A stretch of 64,000 bases of DNA from Deltaproteobacteria bacterium (GTDB taxonomy: Bacteria; UBA10199; JADFYH01). Shown piece after piece: positions 2,509 to 55,835 of this stretch. Within the stretch, counting starts at the first letter, position 1, and the number at the start of each line of letters is the position of its first letter. The stretch is from contig JADFYH010000002.1 of assembly GCA_015233135.1 (NCBI GenBank), forward strand, positions 43,102-107,101, in the 5' to 3' direction. The notes under the pieces are model-generated. The model saw nothing but the letters and a program-made list of their open reading frames with translations, was not told the origin of the DNA and made no database searches. Made by a program: the position numbers and the translations under genes.

Positions 2509-5500
2509 CTAATTGTCGAACAGTGGTGGGGGCTGGAACTGCAGGACTTTGTGCCGGTTCATACGGGGAATAACCGCAGGGATTTCATCGCCTGCATTCA
2601 CCCCCCTACCCGCACTTTGGAAAATTCCTGTTAACAATTTCTCTGAAGGATGAGCAGCTTTAAATCTTACACCCATTCTAGAAAGGACACCCTTGCCCCC
2701 CCTCTGAACTAAAAACACCGCAACACCCACAAGTGCCAGTGGCAGACCCGCTTCCTGCACCCCATCGGCTCCATGTAAAAAATGAGCCCCCGCTGCGGCC
2801 AAACTCGGAAAAGTTTCTGCGGCATAATGGAGTAATCTTTCTGAGGCCAGGCTAGAAGCTACACTCAGGGCAATCAGAAGAGCTTTGCCTTTGCTACCCG
2901 TAAGACTACGAACGACGGGCATCCCATCTCCACCCCTCTCCACTAATTCAGTAGGTTCACAGTCCTCAAGCTGTGTGCTATTCCTACTCCGCTCGGCTGC
3001 TGCCATCATCGTTACTCTTTCATCGGCTTCAACATACTCGCCATTGTGTGGATTAAATATCGTCCTTTTGCCTCGAAGAGCTTCTGGAGGAGGTTCAGCC
3101 ATCACATAATTTTTTTTAGGGTCACGTTCAAATTCAAACGAGGGGTCCAAGGGAGGAAGTTCAGGTAAAGCCTCAACTGTTGGAACCGCCAAGGGCAATT
3201 GCATTTCAAATGCCTCAGCTCTACGTCTTGCTGATGATAGTGGATTCAAGCTTATTCTATCGCTTGTAGCGACAGCCGGGGCGGGCATATCGGAAATTCT
3301 TTGGGGAACGCCAGCTCCTTGCTTACTTGAAAAACTAGGTCCAACATCAAAAGTGATATCTGCGGGTCCTACTTTCACCGAAAATTGGAAATGCCGTTTA
3401 AACTCGACACTTCCATCTGGATTTTGCACGCGGACCAGTTCAGCAGGATTAGCTCCTGCCAAAGTTTTGCCAGGTTCTATGACATTAAAATGATAGACTT
3501 TACCTTCAAGCCCTTGGACAAAAATAGTGCCCGACTCGCGCCAAATTTCAATTGCTGGCCTATAGCCGGATTTAGATTCGTAGGTGAGTTTTTGTCTTTC
3601 AATATCCAAATAAATTTTTCGATGAACCCCCTCACCCAAATGTTCAAAAGGATTTCCCAACGCTTGAGTAGTAGGCAACTCACCCAAGGCGGGGAAATCC
3701 ACGAAAGCGTGACATTCAATCTCTCCTCGTGCAATGCATCTCGCCATTCTCGCGGCATCCTCGTAGATCTTTGCAAGCGCGACTTGACCCGCTTCAAATT
3801 GTCGCATTCTTGCTTGATGAGCACGCAAACGAGGCCCTACAAGGGCTAGCAATCCTAACGCTAAAGCAGCAGGTAAACCATAGGTTAACAACTTCTCACC
3901 AAACGATGCAGAATGCAGCGCCACAAACTGCAAAGGATGAGCTTCGCCATCCCCTGCACGCAGCAAGGCAGAAGCCCCCAAAGCCAAAATGGCAGGCAAG
4001 GCCTTTAAGACTCCTCCCCGTTCTGAAGTGGCTGCTTGCGCTGCCTTTGCCGCCTCTTCTCTAATTCGATGACGAATCAAATGTTCGGCAAGTCCATCAA
4101 GCAGATCGGCATGAGGATAGGGATCTTTTTCACCCTCCACCGCAAATCGATAACCAGCGCCACTTGCATTGAGTTTCGCATAAACTTCTGCGCGCAATTG
4201 ACTGCAGGCAACCTCGAGTTCTGTTCCTTCTAGTTTTTCTAATTCGTGAAAAGTTTCAGGATTTTCAACTTTAACGGCAAGTTCCCTAAACAACGCAGTT
4301 AGGGCCTGTTCAGGTAAAGTTAAAGAGCGACTCAGTAGCCTCAAACAATGGTAGACCGATTGATAATGATTCCACCCCTCGACGATGGGGGGACTTGCTT
4401 CGATTTGATTAATCTCCGCCTTTGCAGCTGCAAACAAGCCTGGAAGCTCCTTTGGAGAAGCTTCGCGTAGGATAAAAACGCTAGAAATTCTCTCTGCACT
4501 CAAGGGCACAGCGGGGTCATAAGTTTCATCCACTCCCAGCCTCAAAGCCTCACGCGGGGCAAACAATTCAGTGATGCCATTGGGATTTTTTAAATTTCCA
4601 TCCGGATGGCGTGGCTCGGTACCTCGCACGTATACCTCGTTTCCAGGCACCAAATCATGCGCCAAAGCAAAGTGTTCGGTTTCGAATACCAGGGTATTGT
4701 GAGAGCCCCAGCGGTATTCATGAATGAGTTCACCCACATTCACCTTTTGCCCCACTTTAGGAAATACACGAGAGCTAGACACCAGGGCCGCGGAGGTGCA
4801 AACCATCGCGACACGGCCATGCCTGGGAGTTTTAATAGTGATCACTACTCGATGATTTTTACTTTGAAATTGAGTGCCTTCTCTGCCATCCAGATTCTCC
4901 ACCGCATTTTCCAAACGCAAGGCAGGATCCACCGTCTGTAAAACACCGGGGATCAGCTCCACACTTTCGATTTCTCCGGAAACAGGGGTTAACGTTTGAT
5001 GATAATCTTTAGGAGACAGATAAATTGCCATCGCGGTGAGCGACCTGCCTGCAAATTTGGCGGCCGTACTCTCCCCCAACCCTTCACGCAATTTTAAAAA
5101 GGCATCTCCATTTGGTTTTGCTTCTGTCACCGGCGCCTTACCGGCAAGGCGCACACCGGTATCCAACAAGTTTTCACCGCGCGCCACCCAATCTAAAACT
5201 CCATCGTGATGAGCCTGACCCAGATGAACCGGCAATCCGCCTTCGGGCAGCTTCAGCGCCCGCGTGAAGAAATCGTTAAAGGTACGAATGCCTTTCCAGT
5301 TAAAACGTTCGTCGTGCTCGATCTTAAATTTTTTCACCAAGATTGCACGCAAACTATGCAAAGCCTTCTCACCCCACATTTGAGACAATAAACCAGGAAA
5401 AGCATCTCGAACCTCGTCATAAATTCTACTTATTGGCACGGTAGAACAAAGCTGCTCCAAGGCGGCCGTGAGGGCAGGCGCATCCAATTTTTCGTTATAA

Positions 5501-8500
5501 AAATGATTGGCAGCCAGAAAGAGGCGGGATTTGGGATCTTTGACATCCCCCAAACGAACAAACTCTCTCGGCCAGGCATCCTGGGCATCGTATTGTACCG
5601 CTTCATAAAATTGCCCGGTGTGTTCGTCTCCAAGCATATGCTCTTCAGTTGCCCGACTGAGGGAATCTTGCTGCCAGGTGGAATCATCTACTTTTAATCG
5701 ACTCTCTCCATTTACAGTATGCCTATATCCGTCTACGCTTTGGAGTTCCGGATGAGTAGGCATGTAGTCTTGAGGGCCCTTCACTCCGGGATGGTTCCAT
5801 TCGCTCAACAAGGCCGTGTTCTCCAAACGACGCTCTGTCCACAGATGCCGATAAACTCCAACCGCCAGACCTGCCCCCAAGGTGAGGAGATGAGGCACTT
5901 GAGAAACAAGAGACTCGCCTAACACCAAAGTTTTGGTGGCAATAGAAGACACGCCTAAAAGCAAAGCGGCATAACCAAACTTGCGGTAAGAACCTTTTGT
6001 GAAAGGATGAATGAAGCCACTGAGTAAAGAAGGGACTAACCCTATAATTCCTCCCAAACCCGCTGAGGTAGAGAGCATGGTCAATCCCGTATGAATTCCC
6101 GCTTCAATTTTATTCCACTTGGATTGGCTCTCTCTTTGTTCAGGCGTCCAATCGGCATTTCCTTTTCTGCGATCCAGGCGACGACGATTCACCAGATGTG
6201 CGATCCCCCCCACCAAAGCCAGAGTCACCAAGTGCCCTGGAGTGCTGGCCAGCAAAAAATGCCCCGCGTTTTGTAAAAAGTGGGTCAAGGCAGAAGTGGT
6301 CTCCGCTACAACGGGATGCAACTCTTGCGCCTGGGCCTCAGCGGGTTGAATCAAATGGGTAAATCCAAAAACTCCCACCACCGAGGCAACAGAAACCAAG
6401 GATTGTTTTAAAAATTGACCGGCTGACGCGCCCCTCTCCCTGACCCTCTCCCTCAAGGGGAGAGGGAAATTAGATTTTCCTTCCCCTTGAGGGGAAGGTG
6501 CCTGTAAGGCGGATGAGGTAAGGGCTTCTGAATTGGGATTCACGGCATCAGAATTGGAAATCGGATTGGCATCCAATTGCACACTCCCCTCCTCTGCCCC
6601 TGAGGTAGCTTCTCCCCGAGGAGAAGGGAAGACCGTCTCCACAAAATGCACGGCATCCCCATCGAAGGCCACACGCACTTCATCTCTTTGATGCCGCGCA
6701 GAAAGATCCCGAGCCTGCGTTGCACTTAATCTTTCTCTCAAGGCCATGCGCAGCAAATCGGCTTTGGAAGGCACTCTGACGCTTTCGCGATGAGCGACAC
6801 CTAGACGGGCAGGATGAGAAGCTTGCGCGTGTAAAACATCGAGTGCATTTAAAAGTTCCACAAAACCTTCCAAACGACGAATTTGGGTGGCACGTAATAC
6901 AAAGCTTGCAGACCCACTCACCAAAGATTTTGCAAAACGATTAAAAATCTCCCGTGCTTCCGTGCCAGAAAAATTTTGAAGATAGGCATGCATTTGCGCA
7001 AAATATTGCGCAGGAATTCCACCATTCATGCTGCGTGATAAAAATCGGCTCCGTTCTTCTTCACTCAAATGAAAATTATGACTTTGCTCAATCAAATTTT
7101 CCAGCGAATGCCCACGGGCCTGATATTCCAGCGCTTCAGCGATAATACGTGTGCGTTCATCCAGAGAAAAAGTAGTCAGAGGAAGATTCCCCATTTCTCG
7201 CGAATACACTTCATCAATAAGGGCCACCCGCTCGCGTAAAATTTGACCGACTTCTTCAGGGCTTAAGGCCGCATGAATATCCAGCTGCAAATTCTGACGA
7301 TAGGCCGGCACATTTCCCTGTTCTATCCCATGCAGCACCGCCAAAATGCGTCCACCGTCCGCAGAAAGAGGGTCTAATCTTAATCGCTCAAAAAGATTTC
7401 CATATCGAGGCAGAGTCTCTTTCATGTGGTGAATGGCTTCCCAGCGGTGTTTTAAAGGTCCCAAGACGGGAAGATGCCCAGTGATGCGACCGGCAAGGTC
7501 CATCTGCCCCGCTTCAATTGCTTTTCCGGCGAGCCAGGTTCCCCAGGAGGCGGTTTCTTCGTGTTCTCGCAAACCTACGGCTTCTTGCGCTTTGTCGGCG
7601 GTTAAAAATCCAAGCAGAGTAGAACCCACAAAGTTGGCACTGCCCAAACCCGCTTCGGCGGAATGCACCAATCCCCGCTGAGCCAGGGCAGAGAAGGCAG
7701 AGGAGTCGATCAAACGCACGGCACCTGATCTTAACGGTTTGATAATCCGTGAACCAAACAGCTCTCCATGCCCATGACAGGCCAAAAACATCACCAGGTT
7801 CGACAGATATTTTTTTGAAAGATGATAAGCCCCCAAATTCTCATGACGCCAATTTTGAAAGGCGAGTCGATGATGCGCCGGATCGTGCCTGCTTTGACGA
7901 TAGGCCTGGGCCGCACCGAGGGCGGTTTCCAGACCCACGAACACTGCGGCTTCGCCGGCCTTCATCGCCAGGGTACAAAGCAAACGCCCCCCTAAGCTGG
8001 CACCGATTCGGGCAGAGAAAAGCCCACCAAACATGAAAGGCAAAAGGAAAGAGGCATTCGACCAAACACTGGCCTCCCCATGAATGGGCAGCATCTCAGA
8101 GGCACTGGAAAGCACCCCATTCATTTGGGCACGGTGGCGCAAAAGGTCTTGAAGACCTGAAACCTGATCGGCTGGGGCCCCATTTTCTTGCAACAAAGAA
8201 CAAAGCGACAAAGAAACCTGCGCGGCGTTAAAACGAGAATGAGAGAGCTCTAAGGTGAAGGCCTCCAGATTGGCATTCACCTGCACGGCAGAGAGACCAG
8301 CGACCGAATTGGCATTGATGAAATTCAAGACGAGTTGTCCTATCGAAGTTGCAGAGGCCCTATCTTCGTTGCCTAGCAGGTGGTTGACGGAGGCTTCGAT
8401 GTTAAAGGCAGGCGCCTCGGCGGAATGCTCAAAAAATTCTCTGAGGTGAGTAAATCGAGTTTCCGTCGCAGAGCCCAGTAAAGTTTGCATCGCCTGAGCT

Positions 8501-10428
8501 ACCGTCAAACGATGTTCTGCCTCGGCTGAAGTGAGACGACTAATTTCCTGGATGAATAAATCTTTTTCCGCATTCAAGGCTTCCGCTGTATCTGCCCCTT
8601 CGGAAGCAAGGATCCCGACTTGATGATTGAGTGCAACATCGAGCACACGCAGCAGAGTGGCCGATCTCAGGCTGGCACGCTGGCTATTGACCTGGGTTTG
8701 CAGTTCGTGAGCCAGTTGATTTTCGGGATGCTGCAGCACCATGGCCTCTAGTCGGGACGAAATTTGATCCAGCCGATCTGCCGTGAGCTCATGGGTTTCC
8801 ATCCGAAGCACAGGAAGCACTTGAGCGAGCTCTGTGAGACCGCGTTGCTCTTCGGCACCAAGCCTTGCCCTGCCACGATTTCCGGCCGCGGCACAAAGTG
8901 CTCCGAGACTATCCAAGGCCTGTAAGGCTTCGCTATTCATTCCAACGCGGGTATAAATTTGGGCCAGTTCACGATAAAGCCGGGCATTCGCCAAATTGGG
9001 AGTTTTGTTCGCCAGCTGTTCCGAGACCCTTGCACCCAATTCCCGAACGGCGTCTTGAAGTCCAAAAGAAGCGAGGATCTGCAGGGCCTGTGAGGCATTC
9101 TGAAAACTTTGAGTGGACCAGCAACGACTGCTGTTCGCATTGGGAGCCAGTTGATGAGCGATCAGGGTTTGTCTGAAGAAAGTGTCGGCTGAGATGCTAT
9201 CGAGCTGACTGAGACGTTCTTGCCTTTGAGCCTCCGTCCCCGAAGAAAGATAAGCCTCAAAATCGTTCACCGCTTGCTCCGACAAACGGCCGTAGGCCTG
9301 GCGCGAAAGCCCGGAAAATTCTCTACGAAAAAGATCTCGACCCACAGACGTTTGGGCATAATTTCGAATGAGAGTTCTTAAAATTTCTTGTCCCTGTGCA
9401 GAGAGTGAAGCCCGTGAAAGCGATAAGGTTCGAAGCGCTTCCACACTGGCACTGTGACCAGAATGTTGGATGGTGTGTAAGGCAATGGCCGCAACCCTTT
9501 GGCGTTGTTGGGTCAGCCGTTCCGTCACTTGCGCGCGACGTTCGGCCAGTTGAGTAGGGTTAAGGTGATTCCGTGCCCAGTTTCCAATCGACAAAACCGT
9601 GTGAGCCGTGGCGGTGGCCATCTCATGGGCTAAATCACTGATACTTTTTTCATGATTTGGAGTTTGAGTTTCGCTGAGGTTGCGAGCCGTCAAAAAATCG
9701 ATGTCGGCCAAATAATTATTTTCCAGGCTCTCCCGCAGGGTTTCATTGTGAGCAACAAATTGATCGACCTGTAAAAAAGCGAGAGCAGTTTCGGCGGAAA
9801 CCGAAAAAAGAGAAGCCGCAGAATAAAGCTCCGCGCGCAAATGCAGCAGCTGGCCTATCACCTGCGCTTGCAGTTCTTGGGGCGCAGTCGCCGCATGAGC
9901 CAGAAATTGGGTGGCTGCCATCAGCTCCTGAGCCCGTTCGGTCACATCGTGAGAGGGATGCGACAGAACTTGAGTGATCCGCTCAAAACCACTTTGCAAA
10001 ATGCCTTGGGCATAAGAGGTGCCTTCAAGCGCGGCAGCCAATTGGCGTCTAAGCTGCAGCTGTTGTGGCACAGCCAGGCTTCGACTCTCTTCCGAAAAAC
10101 CTTGAAGGATTTCCGTAATTTTTGTTTCATCTCCCAATTCAACCAAACTGGGGAGAAGCATCAAAAGGGCTTCCTGCCTATCTCTGCCCTGAAGATTTTG
10201 GTGAATGAAATGGAGGCGGTCCCGAGTAAACTCTCTCAAGTTTTCCTGTTCGCCCGAGGAAGCGAATCTTCTGGCCACAATAGCGGCCGGTACTGTTGTT
10301 GCCGGCAACAAGGGAACCACACTTAAATTTCGTGGGGGGGAACCAGGCTCTCCTCCAGAAGAAGTCGCATTGACAGAACTTTCCGGGAGTGAAAAAGGAG
10401 AAACAGCAGGAAGAATTCGAATAGCCAT
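2509..10428 (-). CDS. Giant (2639 aa) multi-domain membrane protein with an embedded phosphatidylserine decarboxylase-like domain (encoded at about 4650-5320).
   Basis: Single uninterrupted 7.9-kb ORF. Central hydrophobic multi-TM stretch. PSD hallmark motifs occur in canonical order and spacing: FNDFFTR, YLSPKDYHQ, and the G-S of YRWGSHNTLVFE at the position of the LGST self-cleavage site. Intervening similarity to E. coli Psd (IPGVLQTVD vs VPGDLFSVN). Confidence 0.8.
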   Translation of the reverse strand: MAIRILPAVSPFSLPESSVNATSSGGEPGSPPRNLSVVPLLPATTVPAAIVARRFASSGEQENLREFTRDRLHFIHQNLQGRDRQEALLMLLPSLVELGDETKITEILQGFSEESRSLAVPQQLQLRRQLAAALEGTSYAQGILQSGFERITQVLSHPSHDVTERAQELMAATQFLAHAATAPQELQAQVIGQLLHLRAELYSAASLFSVSAETALAFLQVDQFVAHNETLRESLENNYLADIDFLTARNLSETQTPNHEKSISDLAHEMATATAHTVLSIGNWARNHLNPTQLAERRAQVTERLTQQRQRVAAIALHTIQHSGHSASVEALRTLSLSRASLSAQGQEILRTLIRNYAQTSVGRDLFRREFSGLSRQAYGRLSEQAVNDFEAYLSSGTEAQRQERLSQLDSISADTFFRQTLIAHQLAPNANSSRCWSTQSFQNASQALQILASFGLQDAVRELGARVSEQLANKTPNLANARLYRELAQIYTRVGMNSEALQALDSLGALCAAAGNRGRARLGAEEQRGLTELAQVLPVLRMETHELTADRLDQISSRLEAMVLQHPENQLAHELQTQVNSQRASLRSATLLRVLDVALNHQVGILASEGADTAEALNAEKDLFIQEISRLTSAEAEHRLTVAQAMQTLLGSATETRFTHLREFFEHSAEAPAFNIEASVNHLLGNEDRASATSIGQLVLNFINANSVAGLSAVQVNANLEAFTLELSHSRFNAAQVSLSLCSLLQENGAPADQVSGLQDLLRHRAQMNGVLSSASEMLPIHGEASVWSNASFLLPFMFGGLFSARIGASLGGRLLCTLAMKAGEAAVFVGLETALGAAQAYRQSRHDPAHHRLAFQNWRHENLGAYHLSKKYLSNLVMFLACHGHGELFGSRIIKPLRSGAVRLIDSSAFSALAQRGLVHSAEAGLGSANFVGSTLLGFLTADKAQEAVGLREHEETASWGTWLAGKAIEAGQMDLAGRITGHLPVLGPLKHRWEAIHHMKETLPRYGNLFERLRLDPLSADGGRILAVLHGIEQGNVPAYRQNLQLDIHAALSPEEVGQILRERVALIDEVYSREMGNLPLTTFSLDERTRIIAEALEYQARGHSLENLIEQSHNFHLSEEERSRFLSRSMNGGIPAQYFAQMHAYLQNFSGTEAREIFNRFAKSLVSGSASFVLRATQIRRLEGFVELLNALDVLHAQASHPARLGVAHRESVRVPSKADLLRMALRERLSATQARDLSARHQRDEVRVAFDGDAVHFVETVFPSPRGEATSGAEEGSVQLDANPISNSDAVNPNSEALTSSALQAPSPQGEGKSNFPLPLRERVRERGASAGQFLKQSLVSVASVVGVFGFTHLIQPAEAQAQELHPVVAETTSALTHFLQNAGHFLLASTPGHLVTLALVGGIAHLVNRRRLDRRKGNADWTPEQRESQSKWNKIEAGIHTGLTMLSTSAGLGGIIGLVPSLLSGFIHPFTKGSYRKFGYAALLLGVSSIATKTLVLGESLVSQVPHLLTLGAGLAVGVYRHLWTERRLENTALLSEWNHPGVKGPQDYMPTHPELQSVDGYRHTVNGESRLKVDDSTWQQDSLSRATEEHMLGDEHTGQFYEAVQYDAQDAWPREFVRLGDVKDPKSRLFLAANHFYNEKLDAPALTAALEQLCSTVPISRIYDEVRDAFPGLLSQMWGEKALHSLRAILVKKFKIEHDERFNWKGIRTFNDFFTRALKLPEGGLPVHLGQAHHDGVLDWVARGENLLDTGVRLAGKAPVTEAKPNGDAFLKLREGLGESTAAKFAGRSLTAMAIYLSPKDYHQTLTPVSGEIESVELIPGVLQTVDPALRLENAVENLDGREGTQFQSKNHRVVITIKTPRHGRVAMVCTSAALVSSSRVFPKVGQKVNVGELIHEYRWGSHNTLVFETEHFALAHDLVPGNEVYVRGTEPRHPDGNLKNPNGITELFAPREALRLGVDETYDPAVPLSAERISSVFILREASPKELPGLFAAAKAEINQIEASPPIVEGWNHYQSVYHCLRLLSRSLTLPEQALTALFRELAVKVENPETFHELEKLEGTELEVACSQLRAEVYAKLNASGAGYRFAVEGEKDPYPHADLLDGLAEHLIRHRIREEAAKAAQAATSERGGVLKALPAILALGASALLRAGDGEAHPLQFVALHSASFGEKLLTYGLPAALALGLLALVGPRLRAHQARMRQFEAGQVALAKIYEDAARMARCIARGEIECHAFVDFPALGELPTTQALGNPFEHLGEGVHRKIYLDIERQKLTYESKSGYRPAIEIWRESGTIFVQGLEGKVYHFNVIEPGKTLAGANPAELVRVQNPDGSVEFKRHFQFSVKVGPADITFDVGPSFSSKQGAGVPQRISDMPAPAVATSDRISLNPLSSARRRAEAFEMQLPLAVPTVEALPELPPLDPSFEFERDPKKNYVMAEPPPEALRGKRTIFNPHNGEYVEADERVTMMAAAERSRNSTQLEDCEPTELVERGGDGMPVVRSLTGSKGKALLIALSVASSLASERLLHYAAETFPSLAAAGAHFLHGADGVQEAGLPLALVGVAVFLVQRGGKGVLSRMGVRFKAAHPSEKLLTGIFQSAGRGVNAGDEIPAVIPRMNRHKVLQFQPPPLFDN
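6431..6500. repeat. REP-like GC-rich palindromic element (ccctctccc...gggagaggg family) inserted in frame within the giant ORF.
   Basis: cccctctccctgaccctctccctcaaggggagaggg followed by ttccttccccttgaggggaagg. Same family as copies at 15511, 16597, 33283, 35166 and 41954. Encodes PLPLRERVRERG in the protein. Confidence 0.6.
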
Positions 10429-18952: not shown

Positions 18953-19114
18953 ATGGAAACTACACAAAAAACAAGGTCACCCAGTGACAGCCAAAAAATA
19001 GTTCAAAAACTTCATAAAGAGCTGCTGGAAGGAGTAAAGCGCGGCGAATTTTACGGGGTCGATCAAAAAATAAAAATTTTGCAGCGCAGTATTTCAATTT
19101 CTACCCGCATCTAA
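18953..19114 (+). CDS. Small 53-codon ORF (METTQKTRSPSDSQKIVQKLHKELLEGVKRGEFYGVDQKIKILQRSISISTRI), below the ORF-track size cutoff. Doubtful.
   Basis: Open frame between the sigma-54-like promoter and the 425-aa gene. No convincing SD. Confidence 0.2.
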   Translation: METTQKTRSPSDSQKIVQKLHKELLEGVKRGEFYGVDQKIKILQRSISISTRI

Positions 19115-19125
19115 AAAAGGGGGAA

Positions 19126-20403
19126 GTGATGAATATCATCAATTTCAATCAGATCTTGATGGGAAGAGCTTATACAGCCACCTTTCCAAACCTCTGCACA
19201 AATTCAATTTCAAATGAGCTGAGTCCAAATTATGCTCAGATCCTTTCTAGAAACTTTGCCAGAAGCTTTACCAAACGCCTTGAAAATCTTTTACAAAGTG
19301 GACAAGCACAGCCTTCCTCTGCTGCCACACAAAACCAAGTGACTCAAGGAGTTCAAGGTATTCAAGGAGAACAAGGCTTTGTCGCCCAGGTCAACAACGA
19401 GCTGCAGCAGCAAATTTATACCCCAAATGTGGAAGAGCAAAAAAAGTTGAATGACATCAATGCCGACCGGGCCAAAGACGGCAAGCCTCCCATCAATTTT
19501 CAGCAAGTCACCCGTGAAATTGAAAACATCATGAATGATCCCAACCTGGATGAAGGGAAGAAAAAGGATCTCGTTGGAAAAATAAAGGATCGTTTGGGCC
19601 TTGGGAAAGGCGATATGAAGTTTTTATTTACCAAGCGCTTGGCAAAACTTCATGAACAAGCAGCTGATAAATTAAATACCCGTTTAGAAAGTTTGGAAAA
19701 AAATGCAAAAGAGATGGAAAGACTCTACGGCAAGAATAGTCCTCAAGCCTTGCAAGCCAATCAGGCCCTGGAAACCTCCAAAAGTGTTTTAGAACCCCAA
19801 AAACAGCAATGGGAGGCCAAGGCAAACTCTTACAGTAAAATGTTCCCTAGTTTTTGGAGTAAACTGGGAGGGGCATTTAAAAAAGTGGTCTCTGCTGTCA
19901 CCAAAGTGGTCAATGCAGTCGCGCCCATTTTAAAGATGATCCCCGGCATTGGAACGATTGCTTCCCTAGGTTTGGCGGCCATCAACGGGCTCAACAGTAT
20001 CGTCCATGGAGATTGGAAAGGTTTTCTGAAAAATGTGGCCTCAAATCTCGCAAGCGCTGTTCCTGCCTTGGGATCTGCAGTTCAGATGGGCATGAATGCC
20101 TTCAACACCGTAAAATCCTTTGCAAAAGGGAATATCATGGGGGGCCTCGGCGGGCTCATGAATTTCACTGGGGCACTCCCTGAAAAAGTGGGGGACATTC
20201 TCAACAAAGGCTGGTCTGCCTTTGGAAGCATTTACTCGGCGGCCAAAGGAAATTTTATGCCCCTCTTCAATACGGCCCTCAACTTTGCTCCTCAAATTCC
20301 TGGTGTTCAAAAGCTGCAAGAGACTTGGAATAATCTCCAGCAAAAAATACCTGTCCCGCTTAACCAAGGAATACAATGGCTTTCGAGTTGCTTTCCCTTC
20401 TAA
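19126..20403 (+). CDS. Hypothetical secreted/translocator-like protein: Q-rich coiled-coil N-terminal half and a C-terminal Gly/Ala-rich bilobed hydrophobic domain.
   Basis: Good SD (aaaaagggggaagtgATG). No homology recognised. Hydrophobic hairpin VTKVVNAVAPILKMIPGIGTIASLGLAAINGL. Confidence 0.65.
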   Translation: MMNIINFNQILMGRAYTATFPNLCTNSISNELSPNYAQILSRNFARSFTKRLENLLQSGQAQPSSAATQNQVTQGVQGIQGEQGFVAQVNNELQQQIYTPNVEEQKKLNDINADRAKDGKPPINFQQVTREIENIMNDPNLDEGKKKDLVGKIKDRLGLGKGDMKFLFTKRLAKLHEQAADKLNTRLESLEKNAKEMERLYGKNSPQALQANQALETSKSVLEPQKQQWEAKANSYSKMFPSFWSKLGGAFKKVVSAVTKVVNAVAPILKMIPGIGTIASLGLAAINGLNSIVHGDWKGFLKNVASNLASAVPALGSAVQMGMNAFNTVKSFAKGNIMGGLGGLMNFTGALPEKVGDILNKGWSAFGSIYSAAKGNFMPLFNTALNFAPQIPGVQKLQETWNNLQQKIPVPLNQGIQWLSSCFPF

Positions 20404-20445: not shown

Positions 20446-20490
20446 TGAGAGCCTTGTCCTGATTAGGGATGAGGCTCTCCTGTTTTTGGC
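20446..20490 (+). terminator. Probable rho-independent terminator downstream of the 425-aa gene.
   Basis: Hairpin gagagcc...ggctctc followed by ctgtttttgg. Confidence 0.35.
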
Positions 20491-20681
20491 GTTTCATTTT
20501 CAAACCCCAAAAACACTCAAGCGTCCGAAATTCGAACTGGAAAAAAACGACTTAAAGAACATCAAAATATAACCCACTAAAAAGACAAAGTTTTTTTTCA
20601 AAAAAAACACAGGACGAGTTGGCATCTTCTTGGCATTTACAAGAAAGCGTAAACATCAACAAATTTAAAAAGGAGCCTAAA

Positions 20682-22457
20682 ATGATTTCATTAGCCAACC
20701 GAGACGGAAGCCAAAACCTCTACAACGATTTAAGTTCAGGCGAGGCCATTCAAGAATTGAAAGACAAACACGACTTTTCAACCAAGATGCTGCATCCTCT
20801 GATTAGTGGAGAAGAAATGATGCAGACTATCTTTAAGGGGATTAGCGATTCCGACAACCATGCCGCTAGCAGCGAATACATCGACCTTAAAAAGTTTACG
20901 ACAGACAACAACTACAGAATGACCCCCGAAGCTAGAAACGAATTCAACATTTATGAACGTTATGTACGGAATGCTCAATCTCAGGGCAGAACAGGACTCA
21001 ATCCCTTTGAAATGAAAGGCATGTACATGGAGATGAAAAATGCAAATGTGAATTTCACAACTCCAGCTTCTTTTGATAGCCCTGCTTTCAACCAGATTGC
21101 AGGAAGCACACTCCCTCAATACAACGTCATCGGCATGAATACTCCCATTGTTCCCAGTAATAATGGTTATGTGCCTTCTTTTCCTGGAACAAATTTTGTG
21201 GGACAAACTCCCAGCTGGGCTCCCACGGCAGGAATCGCTGCCAATGAAACGGCCAAGGTATGGGGTGACCCTCATTTTGTAGATCCCGATGGTGGACACT
21301 TTGATGTTCAGGGTGAAGCCGGAAAAACCTACAACATGCTGGACGATAACAATTTGAATTTTAATGCCCGTTTTGATGATGCCGGCAAGGGCACAACGGT
21401 GATTGGACAAACAGGGATTACCTTGCAAGGCTGGCGTGGCACTTCCCAGATTCAATTTTCAAAAGAAGGAACAGCTTCGATCAATGGGCAAATCCTCCAA
21501 CCCGGTGCTATGGAAACTCTGGCAGATGGAGGTCATGCCCTTCTCTCTGAAGATGGAAAAACACTCACCCTCAAAACAGGTGAAGGCTATACCATCACCC
21601 AACGTTTAGTGGATGGACGCATTGATGCTGACGTTAAAAGTCCTGCTGAAGGCATAGACACAGATGGCCGTATGCCTGGAGGTTTACTAGGTCAAACTTT
21701 TGATGCGGATAATGTGGCCCGTAATTCCAGTGGGCATCAAGGAGAAGGAGCTATCGCGGGAACAGTCGGTGACTACGAAGTTCCAGGAGGGGTATTTGGA
21801 TTTGCAAATTCAAACAACATTGCCAGCTATCCTAATCTGGTCAATCCTTACCCCCCCACCTATTCGAATTTTCCTGTGGCAAGCGCTCAAGCGCCTATGA
21901 GCATACCCACTTATACCCCTGCCTTCACAGCCTCTTCTTTGGCCTCTGTGATTCCCCAAGTTATGCCTCAAGCCATCCCTCAAAGCGATCAAAGTCTGGA
22001 TTTTATGCTTTCTCAAACTCAACGCGGTGAACAACAGGCAAGCCTCAACGACAGCAATAGTCAGACAGATAAAATCTTGCAGCAGCTTCTGGTCGCACTG
22101 AAAACTGGAAACATCGATGTAGCAATGCTGCTTTTCTCCGACTTAGAAAGCAAACAATCCACTCAAATGACCGGCATGCTCACTCAACAATTAGTGCAAC
22201 TCCAACAATCACGTAAACAAATGATGATGCAAATGAATCAGAATCAAAACCAGACAGCAGGTCAAAATGGAGTAAATCCACAATCTAACACCGCAGCACT
22301 TCAAGCAAATGTTCAAGAAGTAAATGACAGTATTCAAATGTTGACCAGCTTTATTAAAGATATCAGCGAACAGAAAAATCGTGTGGCAGAATTTGCAAAC
22401 AACTATCTTTCCACTGAACATCAGACCAGCATGGACATCGTTCGGGGAATGAGATAA
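20682..22457 (+). CDS. Protein with a VWD-like domain (GDPH motif) and a Q/N-rich low-complexity C-terminus. Start taken at MISLANRDG, which has a good SD.
   Basis: WGDPHFVDPDGGHFDVQGEAGKTYNML matches the VWD N-terminal signature GDPHYxTFDGxxYxFxGxCxYxL. The C-terminal GGLLGQTFDADNV matches the VWD GLCGNFNGxxxDDF signature. SD aaaaaggagcctaaaATG. Confidence 0.7.
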   Translation: MISLANRDGSQNLYNDLSSGEAIQELKDKHDFSTKMLHPLISGEEMMQTIFKGISDSDNHAASSEYIDLKKFTTDNNYRMTPEARNEFNIYERYVRNAQSQGRTGLNPFEMKGMYMEMKNANVNFTTPASFDSPAFNQIAGSTLPQYNVIGMNTPIVPSNNGYVPSFPGTNFVGQTPSWAPTAGIAANETAKVWGDPHFVDPDGGHFDVQGEAGKTYNMLDDNNLNFNARFDDAGKGTTVIGQTGITLQGWRGTSQIQFSKEGTASINGQILQPGAMETLADGGHALLSEDGKTLTLKTGEGYTITQRLVDGRIDADVKSPAEGIDTDGRMPGGLLGQTFDADNVARNSSGHQGEGAIAGTVGDYEVPGGVFGFANSNNIASYPNLVNPYPPTYSNFPVASAQAPMSIPTYTPAFTASSLASVIPQVMPQAIPQSDQSLDFMLSQTQRGEQQASLNDSNSQTDKILQQLLVALKTGNIDVAMLLFSDLESKQSTQMTGMLTQQLVQLQQSRKQMMMQMNQNQNQTAGQNGVNPQSNTAALQANVQEVNDSIQMLTSFIKDISEQKNRVAEFANNYLSTEHQTSMDIVRGMR

Positions 22458-22519: not shown

Positions 22520-22597
22520 TTGGAGAAGAAAACTAGTTTTGACAAGCATCACTTCTTTTTGCTACAAACTCAAACCGCATTCAACCTAGGAGAAAAT

Positions 22598-22810
22598 ATG
22601 GCTCGCGTAACCGTAGAAGACTGTTTAGAAAATGTTGATAACCGTTTTGGTTTAGTTCACCTGACCGCCCGTCGCGTCAGACAAATTGTAAAAGGCTCCG
22701 AAGTTCTCGTTGACTGTGACAACAAAGATATCGTCACGGCCTTACGCGAAATAGCGGAAGGATATGTACGAGTAGACTCGGACACCCTTCCTCAAAACAT
22801 CGACGAATAG
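22598..22810 (+). CDS. rpoZ: DNA-directed RNA polymerase subunit omega.
   Basis: [30 protein letters not shown] is the canonical RpoZ N-terminus. SD ggagaaaatATG. Confidence 0.85.
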
Positions 22811-22812
22811 AC

Positions 22813-23028
22813 CTAGTCCGTAAGGGTGTTGGTATGGGAAGTCAGCCAATTTTCTAAATACTGCTGCTGAATCCTCCATTGCCCACCCACCTTAAAAGCA
22901 GGAAGATTTTTGCTTTTGATCAACCTATAGATGGTCATCTCATGCAAACTTAGCCTATTGGCCACTTCCTTAATGCTTAGGAACTCTTTCCGACTTTGGT
23001 CCACTACAAAATCCGCCATCTTATCCAT
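22813..23028 (-). CDS. Excisionase-family / AlpA-like helix-turn-helix DNA-binding protein.
   Basis: LSIKEVANRLSLHEMTIYRLIKSKNLPAFKVGGQWRI is the HTH_17 / excisionase-type motif. Small (about 72 aa). Confidence 0.55.
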   Translation of the reverse strand: MDKMADFVVDQSRKEFLSIKEVANRLSLHEMTIYRLIKSKNLPAFKVGGQWRIQQQYLENWLTSHTNTLTD

Positions 23029-23470
23029 AAAGAACCTCCCTTGTGTACCCTGTTTATGAAGCAAGAGATATACCAATTTTAGCCATTTTTGCGTTTTCTA
23101 CTAAAATCAATATATTTTAAATAGTTACACATCTTAATCGGACTGTACTTTCCAAACATTTTTTGAATAAAAGGCATTTTTTACCCACATTGCTGACATT
23201 TTTTTGACTCGAGCCCACTTCCCTGGACAAACAAGACTATTCTCTCCCGGCCCCTCTGAAGAGGGGTGATTATTTTTTACCTCCCCTCTTTTTGACAGGG
23301 AAGAAAATGCGAGAGCATTTTCGGGAGTTCACATTATTCAACGCATTCCATTTTTCCTACACTCGTTCGATTCCCATACGCTCCATTTTTTCACAAATTC
23401 AATAACCCCTCATTTTTCATCAACTCTTTCTTTTCAGCAAACAAGCACAGTTCCTGCTTTGTAACTAAGC

Positions 23471-24475
23471 ATGGAAACTCAACTCTCTTTTAAAGACCGT
23501 GCCAAGCAAGCCTTCTATTTTTATGCCGGGATAGGGCAAGGAGTTGTAGACACCGCCAAAGGCCTAGCCAAGCTCTCTCTGCTCCCCGCCACACAAGGCT
23601 TGGATGCCTTGGGAAAAGCGGCCGATTTTATTTCTCATCCTCAAGAAAAAGCAGAAGCCGCTTATCAGGAAGCAAAGCAGGGGTACAAGGATCTGCAAAG
23701 GCTTTGGAGTCAGCCCAAAGAAGAGATTTCAAAAGGGACAGAAAAACTGGGCAACGCTGTTCAGCACGAGTGGAACGAATTCACAAAGCCTTTTGAAAGT
23801 AGTGACCCCAATGTGAGGGCCAAGGCTTGGGGCGAGACAACTTTTAACGTTGCGTCCTTATTTTATGGTGCGGGGGAATTGAAAGGTGCAAGCGTTGCCA
23901 CAAAAGAACTTTCTGTCTTTAGCAAGGCAGAAATTGCGGAATCGAAAATTGTTTCTCAATTAGCAGAAACGGGCGCTGAGATCGCCTCACCTTCTTCAGC
24001 TGCAAGCAGCACCTTACAAGCTTCAGTTCAGTTGTATGAAAGAATTCCAGCGGGTTTTAACAACAGCAAAGAATTTGAAGAATTTGGAAATCTTTTTAGA
24101 GAAGGCCTCCAAAAAAGTGCTGACCCTGAAGCAATTGGAGTGTTAAGAGGGAGTTCGGTCACTGGGGTGAAACATAAAAATGGTTTACCCTTTGATACGG
24201 GAAAGAGGAGTGATTTGGATTTGACGGTGGTGAGTCCGAAGTTGCTCAAAAGGGCTGAGGAAATGGGAGTGAAATTGAGGGAGGGGAAAACTAGGACTGG
24301 GCCTTTGGATCCAGATTTTTTTAGACAAAAACAAATTCTAAAAAAATTAAACCTATTTGACAGCATTCAATCATTGCGAAGCTTTTCTAATAGAGATGTA
24401 AGCCTTATGATATACGACAGTGAAGCTTCCGTTGCAGGCAGAGGCGAGTATATAAAATTTGGAGATAAGAAATGA
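23471..24475 (+). CDS. Putative polymorphic-toxin-like protein: N-terminal pre-toxin (PT-TG-like) Gly-rich region plus a C-terminal nucleotidyltransferase-fold motif.
   Basis: N-terminus AGIGQGVVDTAKGLAKLSLLPATQGLDALGKAADF. C-terminus LRGSSVTGVKHKNGLPFDTGKRSDLDLTVV fits the GS...DxD minimal NTase signature. Overlaps the downstream small ORF by 4 nt (ATGA). Confidence 0.45.
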   Translation: METQLSFKDRAKQAFYFYAGIGQGVVDTAKGLAKLSLLPATQGLDALGKAADFISHPQEKAEAAYQEAKQGYKDLQRLWSQPKEEISKGTEKLGNAVQHEWNEFTKPFESSDPNVRAKAWGETTFNVASLFYGAGELKGASVATKELSVFSKAEIAESKIVSQLAETGAEIASPSSAASSTLQASVQLYERIPAGFNNSKEFEEFGNLFREGLQKSADPEAIGVLRGSSVTGVKHKNGLPFDTGKRSDLDLTVVSPKLLKRAEEMGVKLREGKTRTGPLDPDFFRQKQILKKLNLFDSIQSLRSFSNRDVSLMIYDSEASVAGRGEYIKFGDKK

Positions 24476-24795
24476 AAAATTCTCTGGTCTACGGTCACAA
24501 CTCGAAAGATCAAGTTGAAGTAAAACAAATGCTAGAGCCCATTTTAGACCTTCAATTTGCGGAACACGAAACAGCGGATGAACAACCTTATTACTTTGCT
24601 GGTCAAATTTCGGGAGAGAGATTTTGCATTTATCTTAATTATAATGACTCTGATAATTACTGGAACTATCCCGAACATCAACAATATAAAATACTGTTAT
24701 TAATTAATGAAACTACTCGAGCAGTACCCCTCCAAAAAATGCTCGCCGAAAAAATCCCTGAGCTCGTTTTGTTGGAAGTTTATGAAGAGTGTTGA
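24472..24795 (+). CDS. Small acidic hypothetical protein, candidate cognate immunity protein.
   Basis: 107 aa. Start overlaps the toxin stop. No homology recognised. Confidence 0.4.
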   Translation: MKNSLVYGHNSKDQVEVKQMLEPILDLQFAEHETADEQPYYFAGQISGERFCIYLNYNDSDNYWNYPEHQQYKILLLINETTRAVPLQKMLAEKIPELVLLEVYEEC

Positions 24796-54317: not shown

Positions 54318-55835
54318 TTGGCAGAAAAATTTTGTGACATTTTAATTGTAGGCTGTGAACTCCCTGGTCTTATTGCGGGAGCCTTCCTCGCAAAACGAGG
54401 CCTGTCCGTGACTGTTTTAAATACAGATCAGGATGTAGGAGTTCAGAAAAAAAACATCCAGCCGAATCTGATTTCCCATTTGGACAGTCGGCTTTTCAAA
54501 ACTATTTTAGGAAGACTTTCCATTTCTGATTCCGAACTTGGCATCGTCAACCGCTACGACACGCCTTTTCAGGTGGTGATGCCCAAGCATCGAATTGATG
54601 TCACTGTTCAGCGCGACGCCTTTTATCACGAATTGAAGCGGGAATTTGTTCATCAAGCCGATGCCATTCGTTCTTTTTATTCAAGTTTGGATGAATTGGA
54701 TATTTCGCTGGATGACGAAAAACTTCAATCGCTTCTCTTACCGCGTGGTCCCTTTCAACATTACAAACTTTATAAGTACATCAAGGCAAATCACCTCGAT
54801 TTAACCATCGAAGATTGGATGCAAAGCCTGAATCTCAACCAGGAGATTGCCTGTTTTCTACAAGCTCAAATCAAAACCCTTTCCAATTTACACGTAGAAA
54901 AACCCTTTTCTTATTTGTTGGCGAAACTACTCGCTAATCAAAACACGGTGCTTTTTGATGTGAAGGGTGGCATCGGGCAGTTGAAAAAAATATTTTTGAA
55001 CAAGATCGAAGCCTATTCTGGAAAAGTAAAAAATGATGTGAAGATTGAGAACATCCTCATCGAAAAGCAACGCGCAAAGGGCGTAAAACTGGGTGGATTC
55101 GAAGGGCTGATTGCCTGTAAATATCTTTTATGGAACGAACCTTCCGCGCAAATTGAACCCTGGTTACCCAAAAATTTTCTTTCCAAATGGCTCATTCGAA
55201 AAATTCAGAAAGTAAAACCCCAATATTATCGTTTCAGCATCCAGTATGATGTCGATCCGGATATCATTCCCGTGGGCATGAAAGGCAATGTGCTGCTGGT
55301 GCAAGATCCTGACAAAGAATTGCTGGCTGAAAACTTTTTGCACCTGCATTTTTATTATCCCAAAGAGGCGGAAAGCCCTTCTCCTTACAAGACCCTGCTC
55401 GTTACCTATTTATTGCCGGTTGGCGACCACACACAAAATGAAGAGTGGTTTGGCAATCTGCATCAGCGCATCACGGAACAGCTTCAGGATTTGATGCCCT
55501 TTAGCCAGGGCCGTATTCATCTCCGCTTTCCCAAGTCGGATGAAAAGATTGAATCCAACGATTTGCTCTTCCCCCTCGAAGACCCGGATTTTGTGGTGTT
55601 TAAATCCAATGCCTTGCAAAATCCGGTCTATGAAGTGAAGGCCCATCGTTTTCAACATCTCTTCCCTTTCCCCAATCGAAGTTTCATCCGGGGGCTCATT
55701 CTTTGCGGCTCAGAAATCCTCGCCTGCCTAGGCTTTGAAGGCGCATTTTTATTGGGTTTGAAGACCACCGATTATGTCTGGACCGAATTTGAATTGCGCA
55801 AGAAAAAGGGATTAAAGCAGAGGAGGATTGCCTGA
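54318..55835 (+). CDS. FAD/NAD(P)-dependent oxidoreductase (phytoene-desaturase-like fold).
   Basis: N-terminal DILIVGCELPGLIAGAFLAKRG dinucleotide-binding motif. Confidence 0.6.
   Translation: MAEKFCDILIVGCELPGLIAGAFLAKRGLSVTVLNTDQDVGVQKKNIQPNLISHLDSRLFKTILGRLSISDSELGIVNRYDTPFQVVMPKHRIDVTVQRDAFYHELKREFVHQADAIRSFYSSLDELDISLDDEKLQSLLLPRGPFQHYKLYKYIKANHLDLTIEDWMQSLNLNQEIACFLQAQIKTLSNLHVEKPFSYLLAKLLANQNTVLFDVKGGIGQLKKIFLNKIEAYSGKVKNDVKIENILIEKQRAKGVKLGGFEGLIACKYLLWNEPSAQIEPWLPKNFLSKWLIRKIQKVKPQYYRFSIQYDVDPDIIPVGMKGNVLLVQDPDKELLAENFLHLHFYYPKEAESPSPYKTLLVTYLLPVGDHTQNEEWFGNLHQRITEQLQDLMPFSQGRIHLRFPKSDEKIESNDLLFPLEDPDFVVFKSNALQNPVYEVKAHRFQHLFPFPNRSFIRGLILCGSEILACLGFEGAFLLGLKTTDYVWTEFELRKKKGLKQRRIA

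Follow-up and report, generated by a model that had tools for sequence, protein, structure and literature searches.

What does the hypothetical protein HQM15_01035 do, and does the Gly-Asp-Pro-His (GDPH) motif near its centre mark a place at which it cuts itself? The gene lies at positions 20682-22457 (+) of a 64,000-nucleotide stretch of contig JADFYH010000002.1 from a Deltaproteobacteria bacterium, the whole of which we call the window. A preliminary description of the window had proposed that positions 21255-21800 encode a cysteine-free domain resembling the von Willebrand factor D (VWD) domain, with an intact GDPH that might self-cleave. From sequence comparison, structure prediction and analogy with characterized proteins we conclude, with a probability of roughly 65%, that HQM15_01035 is a modular, probably exported protein that would cleave itself between Asp196 and Pro197 in a cysteine-free VWD-like central domain. 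The central proposal of the preliminary description is supported by the alignments and the structural model.

The open reading frame (ORF) list starts this gene at a TTG (20619-22457), but translation truly begins at the ATG at 20682; this start is preceded at 7 nt by AGGAG and agrees with the 591 amino acids (aa) of HQM15_01035 (100% match to P0001). The product has a mass of 64.2 kDa and an isoelectric point (pI) of 4.7, and by composition it contains no cysteine, not only in the domain but over its whole length; its hydropathy profile contains nothing hydrophobic enough to be a signal peptide or a membrane helix. Positions 21255-21800 (+) translate as had been described, as KVWGDPHFVDPDGGHFDVQGEAGKTYNML...MPGGLLGQTFDADNVARN... 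in a single long ORF, and the limits drawn by a family hidden Markov model (HMM) enclose nearly the same interval (21225-21806 (+), aa 182-375). This domain of 194 aa is acidic, with 27 Asp and Glu against 13 Lys and Arg and a pI of 4.4. Its GDPH (G195-D196-P197-H198, 21264-21275 (+)) stands within WGDPHF at aa 194-199 and is directly followed by a DPDGG loop; the predicted scissile bond joins D196 (codon 21267-21269) to P197 (codon 21270-21272).

Several comparisons link this domain to VWD. A homologue search returned 93 proteins at E<=1e-3, among which only the central stretch of ~195 aa is common beyond the close orthologues, themselves 37-55% identical to HQM15_01035. Invariant in a 24-sequence alignment are G-D-P-H, G204, D208, G211, G214, Y217, D222, G334, L335, G337 and E366, and the overall pattern is GDPH, then GxxxDxxGxxGxxY..D and, near the end, P.GLLGQTFD...QGEGAI..DYEV. 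A 31-sequence family profile searched against the PDB recovered VWD domains, those of FCGBP at E=2.2e-20 and those of MUC5B, MUC5AC and MUC2 with weaker scores; the FCGBP alignment covers profile positions 10-159 in one stretch and sets GDPH on GDPH. The VWD N-terminal signature that had been noticed, GDPH[YF]xxxDGxx[YF]x[FV]xG, is present at the domain start: in HMMER alignments WGDPHFVDPDGGHFDVQG falls on WGDPHYNSFDGWSFDFQG and on the beginnings of four further VWD domains of FCGBP. Pfam VWD (PF00094, gathering cutoff 22.9 bits) matches 18 of 31 diverse family members with a best E of 1e-8; above its cutoff are P0058 (34.3 bits), P0088 (26.9 bits) and a Paracoccus member at locus L025 (24.6 bits). 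DUF1521 (PF07481, cutoff 23.6 bits) matches seven of the 31, with a best E of 2.3e-4.

The distal end of the domain carries a conserved motif of its own, P-G-G-L-L-G-Q-T-F-D-A-D-N (aa 332-344, 21675-21713 (+)), followed by QGEGAI...DYEV; P332, G334, L335, G337, T339 and D341 occupy invariant or near-invariant columns. The preliminary description had equated GGLLGQTFDADNV with the VWD signature GLCGNFNG..DDF, a claim that the alignments do not bear out. Pfam VWD alignments of family members end at profile position 109-128 of 156, before PGGLLGQTFDADN, and so give no support to a correspondence of PGGLLGQTFDADN with GLCGN; the sole HMMER alignment to FCGBP that reaches CGLCGN sets it against another segment. 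Neither the conserved cysteines and disulfides of VWD nor the GLCGNFNG..DDF signature was found in this cysteine-free protein. PGGLLGQTFDADN may correspond to GLCGNFNG.

An AlphaFold2 model of the domain, built on a 31-sequence alignment, is a sandwich of 13 strands with a predicted local distance difference score (pLDDT) of 95.6 and a predicted template-modelling score (pTM) of 0.91. In a Foldseek comparison with the PDB the first 42 matches are all VWD domains, from MUC5AC, MUC5B, MUC2, VWF, FCGBP, Cypridina luciferase and RGMB (E 6.4e-8 to 2e-3, probability 1.00, TM-score to query 0.45-0.68), and the self-cleaved RGMB and FCGBP are among them; beyond rank 42, E exceeds 7e-3 and TM-scores drop below 0.2. 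The structural check that had been suggested therefore returned VWD, and the combination of no VWD HMM match with an unrelated fold, named beforehand as telling against the idea, is not what we found. Taking the model and the alignments together, the VWD fold and the VWD relationship of the domain appear almost certain. Strand 1 of the model (TAKVW) comes before GDPH and strand 2 after it, so that a cut at Asp-Pro would leave an N-terminal fragment that still supplies one strand of the sandwich.

The domain belongs to a large family, contrary to the earlier remark that such domains are uncommon in bacteria. A profile search of 1.84 billion sequences clustered at 50% identity yielded 2648 representatives with an E of 1e-3 or less; 958 of them stay within 1e-10, and 256, from at least five phyla, within 1e-30. 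A motif-anchored scan of one genome per species, using 8 sequences, located 57 loci. These lie in Myxococcota and other 'Deltaproteobacteria' metagenome-assembled genomes, Thiothrix and Thiolinea, Vampirovibrionales (Melainabacteria) and Planctomycetes, and also in several cultured Paracoccus species, Roseibium, other Rhodobacterales, Hyphomicrobiales and Rhodomicrobium. One family member already bears the NCBI name 'VWD domain-containing protein'. Among 224 domain copies, 173 (77%) are cysteine-free. Other members carry RTX, EF-hand, dockerin, PA-IL lectin, cadherin-like and Big_9 modules; the RTX, EF-hand, dockerin, lectin and cadherin types are extracellular or Ca2+-linked.

Would the domain cleave? 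According to the FCGBP study (PMC8267560), the Asp of a VWD GDPH attacks its own peptide bond, which frees the amino terminus of Pro and leaves an Asp anhydride; this then either undergoes hydrolysis or reacts with a hydroxyl or amine. The cleaved pieces of FCGBP stay joined by a disulfide, and GDPH sites outside VWD domains are treated in that study as a separate group. Within our family, 210 of 224 domain copies retain GDPH and 221 (98.7%) retain Asp-Pro. VWD domains without Asp-Pro align at the same position with WGDFHY, GGAHF and YGDGHF (MUC5B, MUC5AC), that is, with GDFH, GGAH and GDGH in place of GDPH. As VWD domains not known to cleave lack Asp-Pro there, the fold does not require it, and selection for cleavage is the simplest reason for its conservation. 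Two tandem copies occur in 20 proteins, and a degenerate motif (SDPH, NDPH) is usually that of the first copy. In P0014, P0016, P0017, P0019, P0020, P0026 and P0110 the first copy often reads SDPH, NDPH, NDPR or NDPM and the second GDPH, with Asp-Pro in all; the two sites of a tandem may be cleaved at different rates or one after the other.

We propose the following sequence of events. HQM15_01035 would leave the cell unfolded by a route that needs no signal peptide, export being inferred only from the lack of cysteine, the composition and the family context. The acidic domain would then fold, possibly with the help of Ca2+; the trigger may be Ca2+, by analogy with the bacterial MIIA domain considered below, or pH. 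Once folded, the domain would break its own backbone between Asp196 and Pro197 by the chemistry described for VWD proteins and MIIA, with the Asp side chain attacking its own peptide carbonyl, the N-terminus of Pro being freed and a reactive C-terminal Asp anhydride being left behind. The expected products are a 21.7-kDa N-terminal piece, mostly aa 1-181 and ending ...ETAKVWGD, and a 42.4-kDa C-terminal piece that begins PHFVD... Because the protein has no cysteine there is no disulfide tether, and the two pieces, joined only by the docking of beta-strand 1, could separate. Alternatively, the anhydride might couple the N-terminal piece to a nucleophile.

The closest bacterial precedent, which the preliminary description missed, is the Ca2+-inducible MIIA/DUF1521 domain of the type III secretion system (T3SS) proteins NopE1 and NopE2 (Bradyrhizobium) and VIC_001052 (Vibrio coralliilyticus). 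Once Ca2+ or Mn2+ has made MIIA fold, it is cut behind the Asp of its GDPH; D116A blocks the cut, and no experimental MIIA structure existed as of the 2019 paper (PMC6506597), from whose supplement we took the three sequences. The family HMM scores them at 1-3 bits only, and when the family is compared with five MIIA domains by hhalign, the probability is 45% across 22 columns. Against a deeper DUF1521 alignment of 34 sequences, with 32 database proteins, hhalign of the 224 family copies gives 95% probability (E=4e-8) over 66 columns from GDPH on. Our searches for papers on bacterial VWD self-cleavage found nothing beyond the MIIA work.

Genomic context adds to this link. A 388-aa family member of Paracoccus sulfuroxidans CGMCC 1.5364 (L025:7572-8738, NZ_VLKU01000004.1) lies in the middle of an Rhc-type injectisome cluster that comprises secretin, SctV, a TPR chaperone, SctD with a Y4YQ_C domain, SctU, SctQ, YscO and SctL, and the same residues of this protein exceed both Pfam cutoffs: aa 144-218 score 26.5 bits with DUF1521, and aa 145-268 give the VWD score stated above. 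The tandem-domain protein P0021 and the VWD-annotated P0088 adjoin YscJ, YscK, SctL, the T3SS ATPase, YscO, SepQ, SctRSTU and FHIPEP, and P0035 has a NolX segment behind its domain (31.6 bits, cutoff 26.1). By tblastn with Sct proteins, Sct homologues occur within 8 kb at 19 of the 57 loci; L063, L064 and L025 are T3SS-linked as well. The VWD fold, the near-invariant GDPH, the injectisome siting and the member above both thresholds together imply that VWD and MIIA are possibly one module, and the sequence evidence suggests that the family bridges VWD and the self-cleaving MIIA domain of NopE1 and VIC_001052. Next to P0021, downstream of sctU, we also observed two paralogous small acidic proteins (L063:8566-9808; 113 and 241 aa) that begin MFGAIIGTVGGSLVNGL.. 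and are built of repeated ...MxELMDMMTELLxEVKSLV.. units; they are encoded between the genes for T3SS export and the tandem VWD-like gene, and no Pfam family is recorded for either.

Several observations weigh against self-cleavage of an exported HQM15_01035. The isolated domain falls below both Pfam cutoffs, at 13.1 bits for VWD (aa 14-128 against profile positions 2-114 of 156) and 12.8 bits for DUF1521 (aa 9-69 against profile positions 36-94 of 169), each with E=0.12; in the Pfam VWD check that had been proposed, the model matches the domain, with a score short of the cutoff. The whole protein has no match in Pfam or NCBIfam even at E<=1. When the motif and the next 24 residues are deleted, the hhalign probability against DUF1521 drops to 8% (reversed control, 1.8%); from 95% with the motif and 8% without it, remote homology of the family to DUF1521/MIIA is likely, with the evidence concentrated in the cleavage module. 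Searches of the 64-kb window and of the orthologous loci turned up no T3SS, type I or other secretion genes, and in the window no flagellar genes either. Finally, the conserved GDPH could be structural, or a neighbour of a Ca2+ site, and not catalytic.

The leading alternative, although we consider it unlikely, is that HQM15_01035 is a true NopE-type (DUF1521/MIIA) type III effector, secreted unfolded by an injectisome encoded elsewhere in the genome, which would fold and cleave itself on meeting host Ca2+. The GDPH of the window protein has similar flanks, (R/K)(I/V)xGDPH(F/V)D..G.G..DFD; the protein is cysteine-free, acidic and without a signal peptide; many relatives have two tandem copies, as NopE1 and NopE2 do; and the injectisome siting of relatives, the NolX segment of P0035 above its cutoff and the 66-column hhalign likeness all fit such an origin. 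Set against this, the DUF1521 score of the domain stays well under the cutoff, the family profile barely registers NopE1, NopE2 and VIC_001052, and no likeness to these proteins over their full length was found. GDPH lies ~17 residues into the window domain and ~45 into MIIA, and the fold evidence favours VWD proper. The DUF1521-type linkage to a T3SS cluster is missing for the window gene, since tblastn with Sct proteins found none in the window or in the orthologous loci L001, L002, L004, L005 and L062, and the N- and C-terminal regions of the subfamily, together with its gene cassette, are absent from T3SS-linked loci.

It is quite improbable that the domain is a non-cleaving structural or adhesive VWD-like sandwich that keeps GDPH for folding or metal binding and serves, uncut, as an adhesin or scaffold. 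Cleavage is absent from most eukaryotic VWD domains, and the PA-IL lectin, cadherin-like, Big_9 and dockerin modules fused to relatives are typical of adhesins. Such non-cleaving domains, however, lose Asp-Pro at this position, whereas the family keeps it almost without exception, and all studied proteins with GDPH at this structural position are reported to be cleaved: FCGBP, the C-terminal VWD of MUC2, MUC5AC, RGM and MIIA (PMC8267560, PMC6506597). A chance motif in a spurious or non-functional ORF is refuted for all practical purposes: although the 128,000 six-frame positions divided by 160,000 predict ~0.8 bare GDPH per window, so that the tetrapeptide by itself proves nothing, and all curated families stay below threshold, the extended signature far exceeds what chance would give and the gene has a strong ribosome-binding site, orthologues 37-55% identical in a kept gene order, hundreds of family clusters and a very confident structure model.

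The self-cleaving VWD-like domain we propose is flanked by regions of narrower distribution. The N-terminal region (aa 1-181, 20682-21224 (+)) has no recognizable family, with no match in Pfam or NCBIfam, and is common only to the closest orthologues, P0002 and P0023. Behind the domain a linker rich in Pro, Ser, Thr and Gln (aa 376-441, 21807-22004 (+)), predicted to be unstructured and unconserved in the alignment, leads to a C-terminal domain (aa 442-591, 22005-22454 (+)) that ends ...QTSMDIVRGMR. AlphaFold2 models this domain as three long helices (2-34, 37-84 and 93-149 in tail numbering; pLDDT 80), and no significant match was found among PDB sequences, in Pfam or by Foldseek. The Pro/Ser/Thr-rich linker and the 150-aa three-helix tail define the close orthologues, a subfamily we call type A, and the tail domain is conserved in type A only. 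We considered whether the tail might be a T3SS needle or tip protein, its ending ...SIVRGMR resembling needle C-termini such as ...IIQNFR, and dropped this as unsupported: the profile against the PDB gave only coiled-coil noise (E>=0.03), a Pfam scan of 15 members gave scattered coiled-coil matches and one LcrV match in a single member (E=0.009), and Foldseek with the tail model gave nothing below E=0.16.

The VWD-like gene is the third of a lineage-specific cassette just upstream of rpoZ. The first gene is a small ORF of 53 aa (...GEFYGVDQKIKILQRSISISTRI; 18953-19114 (+)), which occupies the same position in L001 and L062 and is detected by tblastn in L001, L002, L004, L005 and L062 at E=1e-5 to 6e-8. 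The second encodes a partner protein of 425 aa (19126-20403 (+)), recognized from synteny, homology to L001 and hydropathy, whose N-terminal half is coiled-coil; the C-terminal half, amphipathic and rich in Gly and Ala, contains a single hydrophobic segment at ~aa 254-293. The partner is 41% identical (E=5e-73) to the gene at the same position in L001, and it has only nine homologues, all hypothetical and all sharing contigs with VWD-like orthologues. Its aa 237-393 weakly match the Gly-rich central segment of a phage tape-measure family (phrog_305, E=7.5e-5, 22.5 bits), a match that may be compositional, glycine-zipper-like, and not homology. A phage or defence origin of the cassette was considered and rejected, as PADLOC gave no match and PHROGs only this weak one. 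A consensus scan placed a strong terminator-like hairpin, a 14-bp stem followed by CTGTTTTTGG, between the partner and the VWD-like gene (20447-20479 (+)); from the sequence, the two genes may be transcribed separately or be subject to attenuation.

The same cassette order is found in L001/L002/L004, L005 and L062. Behind the cassette lie rpoZ (omega; 22520-22810 (+)) and a convergent HTH_17 gene of excisionase type (22813-23076 (-)), and as the same pair follows it in L001, L002 and L062, the cassette holds a stable chromosomal position and does not lie on a mobile element. Among 30 neighbouring ORFs scanned with Pfam all annotated ones are housekeeping, including GMC oxidoreductase, EamA, M15 and M23 peptidases, P-type ATPase, UbiD, SurE, PCMT, PheT, ThrS, S1, RodA, purine genes and GuaA. 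Elsewhere in the window, ORFs of 334 aa (23471-24475 (+)) and 107 aa (24472-24795 (+)) overlap by 4 nt (ATGA) in a layout typical of toxin-immunity pairs; the pair has no match in Pfam, PHROGs or PADLOC, the 334-aa ORF has no significant NCBIfam match, and the pair is absent behind rpoZ and HTH_17 in L001 and L062. An ORF of 2639 aa (2509-10428 (-)) has a single Pfam match, phosphatidylserine decarboxylase-like, at aa 1780-1933 (E=3.7e-19), and its other ~2500 residues are without a family. A 724-aa ORF (61770-63944 (-)) fuses an N6 DNA methylase domain with type I restriction-modification specificity (Methylase_S) domains, and an ORF of 505 aa (54318-55835 (+)) that closes a purine and menaquinone-type operon is without a Pfam match at E<=1e-5.

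A wider and doubtful reading is that this bacterial family is an evolutionary bridge for, and possibly the source of, the GDPH module in animal mucins, FCGBP and RGM and in MIIA, and that it was recruited here into a T3SS-independent cassette as a self-processing surface or translocon-like device. The cassette would then unite a small helical protein with a membrane-active partner of Gly-zipper type and with the VWD-like protein and its three-helix tail. The cut at Asp196-Pro197 would either set the N-terminal piece free or anchor it covalently by way of the Asp anhydride. GDPH self-cleaving VWD and MIIA modules are known; new are a divergent unannotated member, its architecture, the conserved cassette and the absence of a disulfide tether. 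Animal VWD proteins (mucins, FCGBP, RGM) and bacterial MIIA/DUF1521 have separate literatures, which the family appears to join. If this is true, the structure of MIIA could be modelled on those of VWD domains, and cleavage without a disulfide tether would truly part the two halves, which is possibly the point of the device. The cultured Paracoccus species with a member inside a T3SS cluster make the bridging idea testable. For the window itself, a 'hypothetical protein' gains a plausible function and a conserved three-gene cassette is defined.

How does HQM15_01035 compare with known systems? Secreted GDPH adhesives outside animals have been described in the 'GDPH-domain' adhesive trail proteins of diatoms (Ac629; Lachnit et al. 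2019, as cited in bioRxiv 10.1101/2023.03.06.531300); in that citing account the domain is reported to be diatom-specific, and any relationship to ours would be conjectural. Inter-alpha-trypsin inhibitor heavy chains (ITH3) undergo an autocatalytic Asp-Pro cut whose anhydride becomes a covalent ester to a glycan, and by analogy could be a model for a role of the new C-terminal Asp196. ITH3 differs in being eukaryotic, in its low-pH trigger and in being listed among proteins without VWD domains (PMC8267560).

MIIA/DUF1521 and the window protein are alike in being bacterial, cysteine-poor, acidic and without a signal peptide, and in both domains GDPH is followed by an Asp/Gly-rich loop and DFD; the DPDGG loop of the window domain is placed as the DxDGDG loop is in NopE. 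Relatives of the window protein are MIIA-like in their frequent tandem copies, their injectisome siting and the one double-threshold member. The systems differ in the length of sequence before GDPH and in the lack of T3SS genes near the window gene, and their likeness is confined to the ~66 columns from GDPH on. MIIA is also reported to be disordered without Ca2+ (PMC6506597), whereas the window domain is predicted to be a well-packed sandwich.

The eukaryotic GDPH VWD domains (FCGBP, the C-terminal VWD of MUC2 and of MUC5AC, RGM, SUSD2 and MUC4) differ from the window protein in several respects: the latter is bacterial and cysteine-free, with no intradomain disulfide tether, it has no C8, TIL or E modules and no signal peptide, and its Pfam score is sub-threshold. 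Where the eukaryotic domains have a C-terminal GLCGN the window protein has PxGLLGQTFD, a putative equivalent. The beta-sandwich is nevertheless the same; GDPH has the corresponding position behind strand 1, where the fold begins, in a residue-for-residue HMMER alignment; and the flanks are shared, W/x-GDPH-[YF]-x-x-x-DG-x-x-[YF]-D-[FV]-x-G. By analogy with these proteins, as the FCGBP paper describes them (PMC8267560), we would expect the window domain to undergo the same Asp-Pro cleavage by way of an Asp anhydride.

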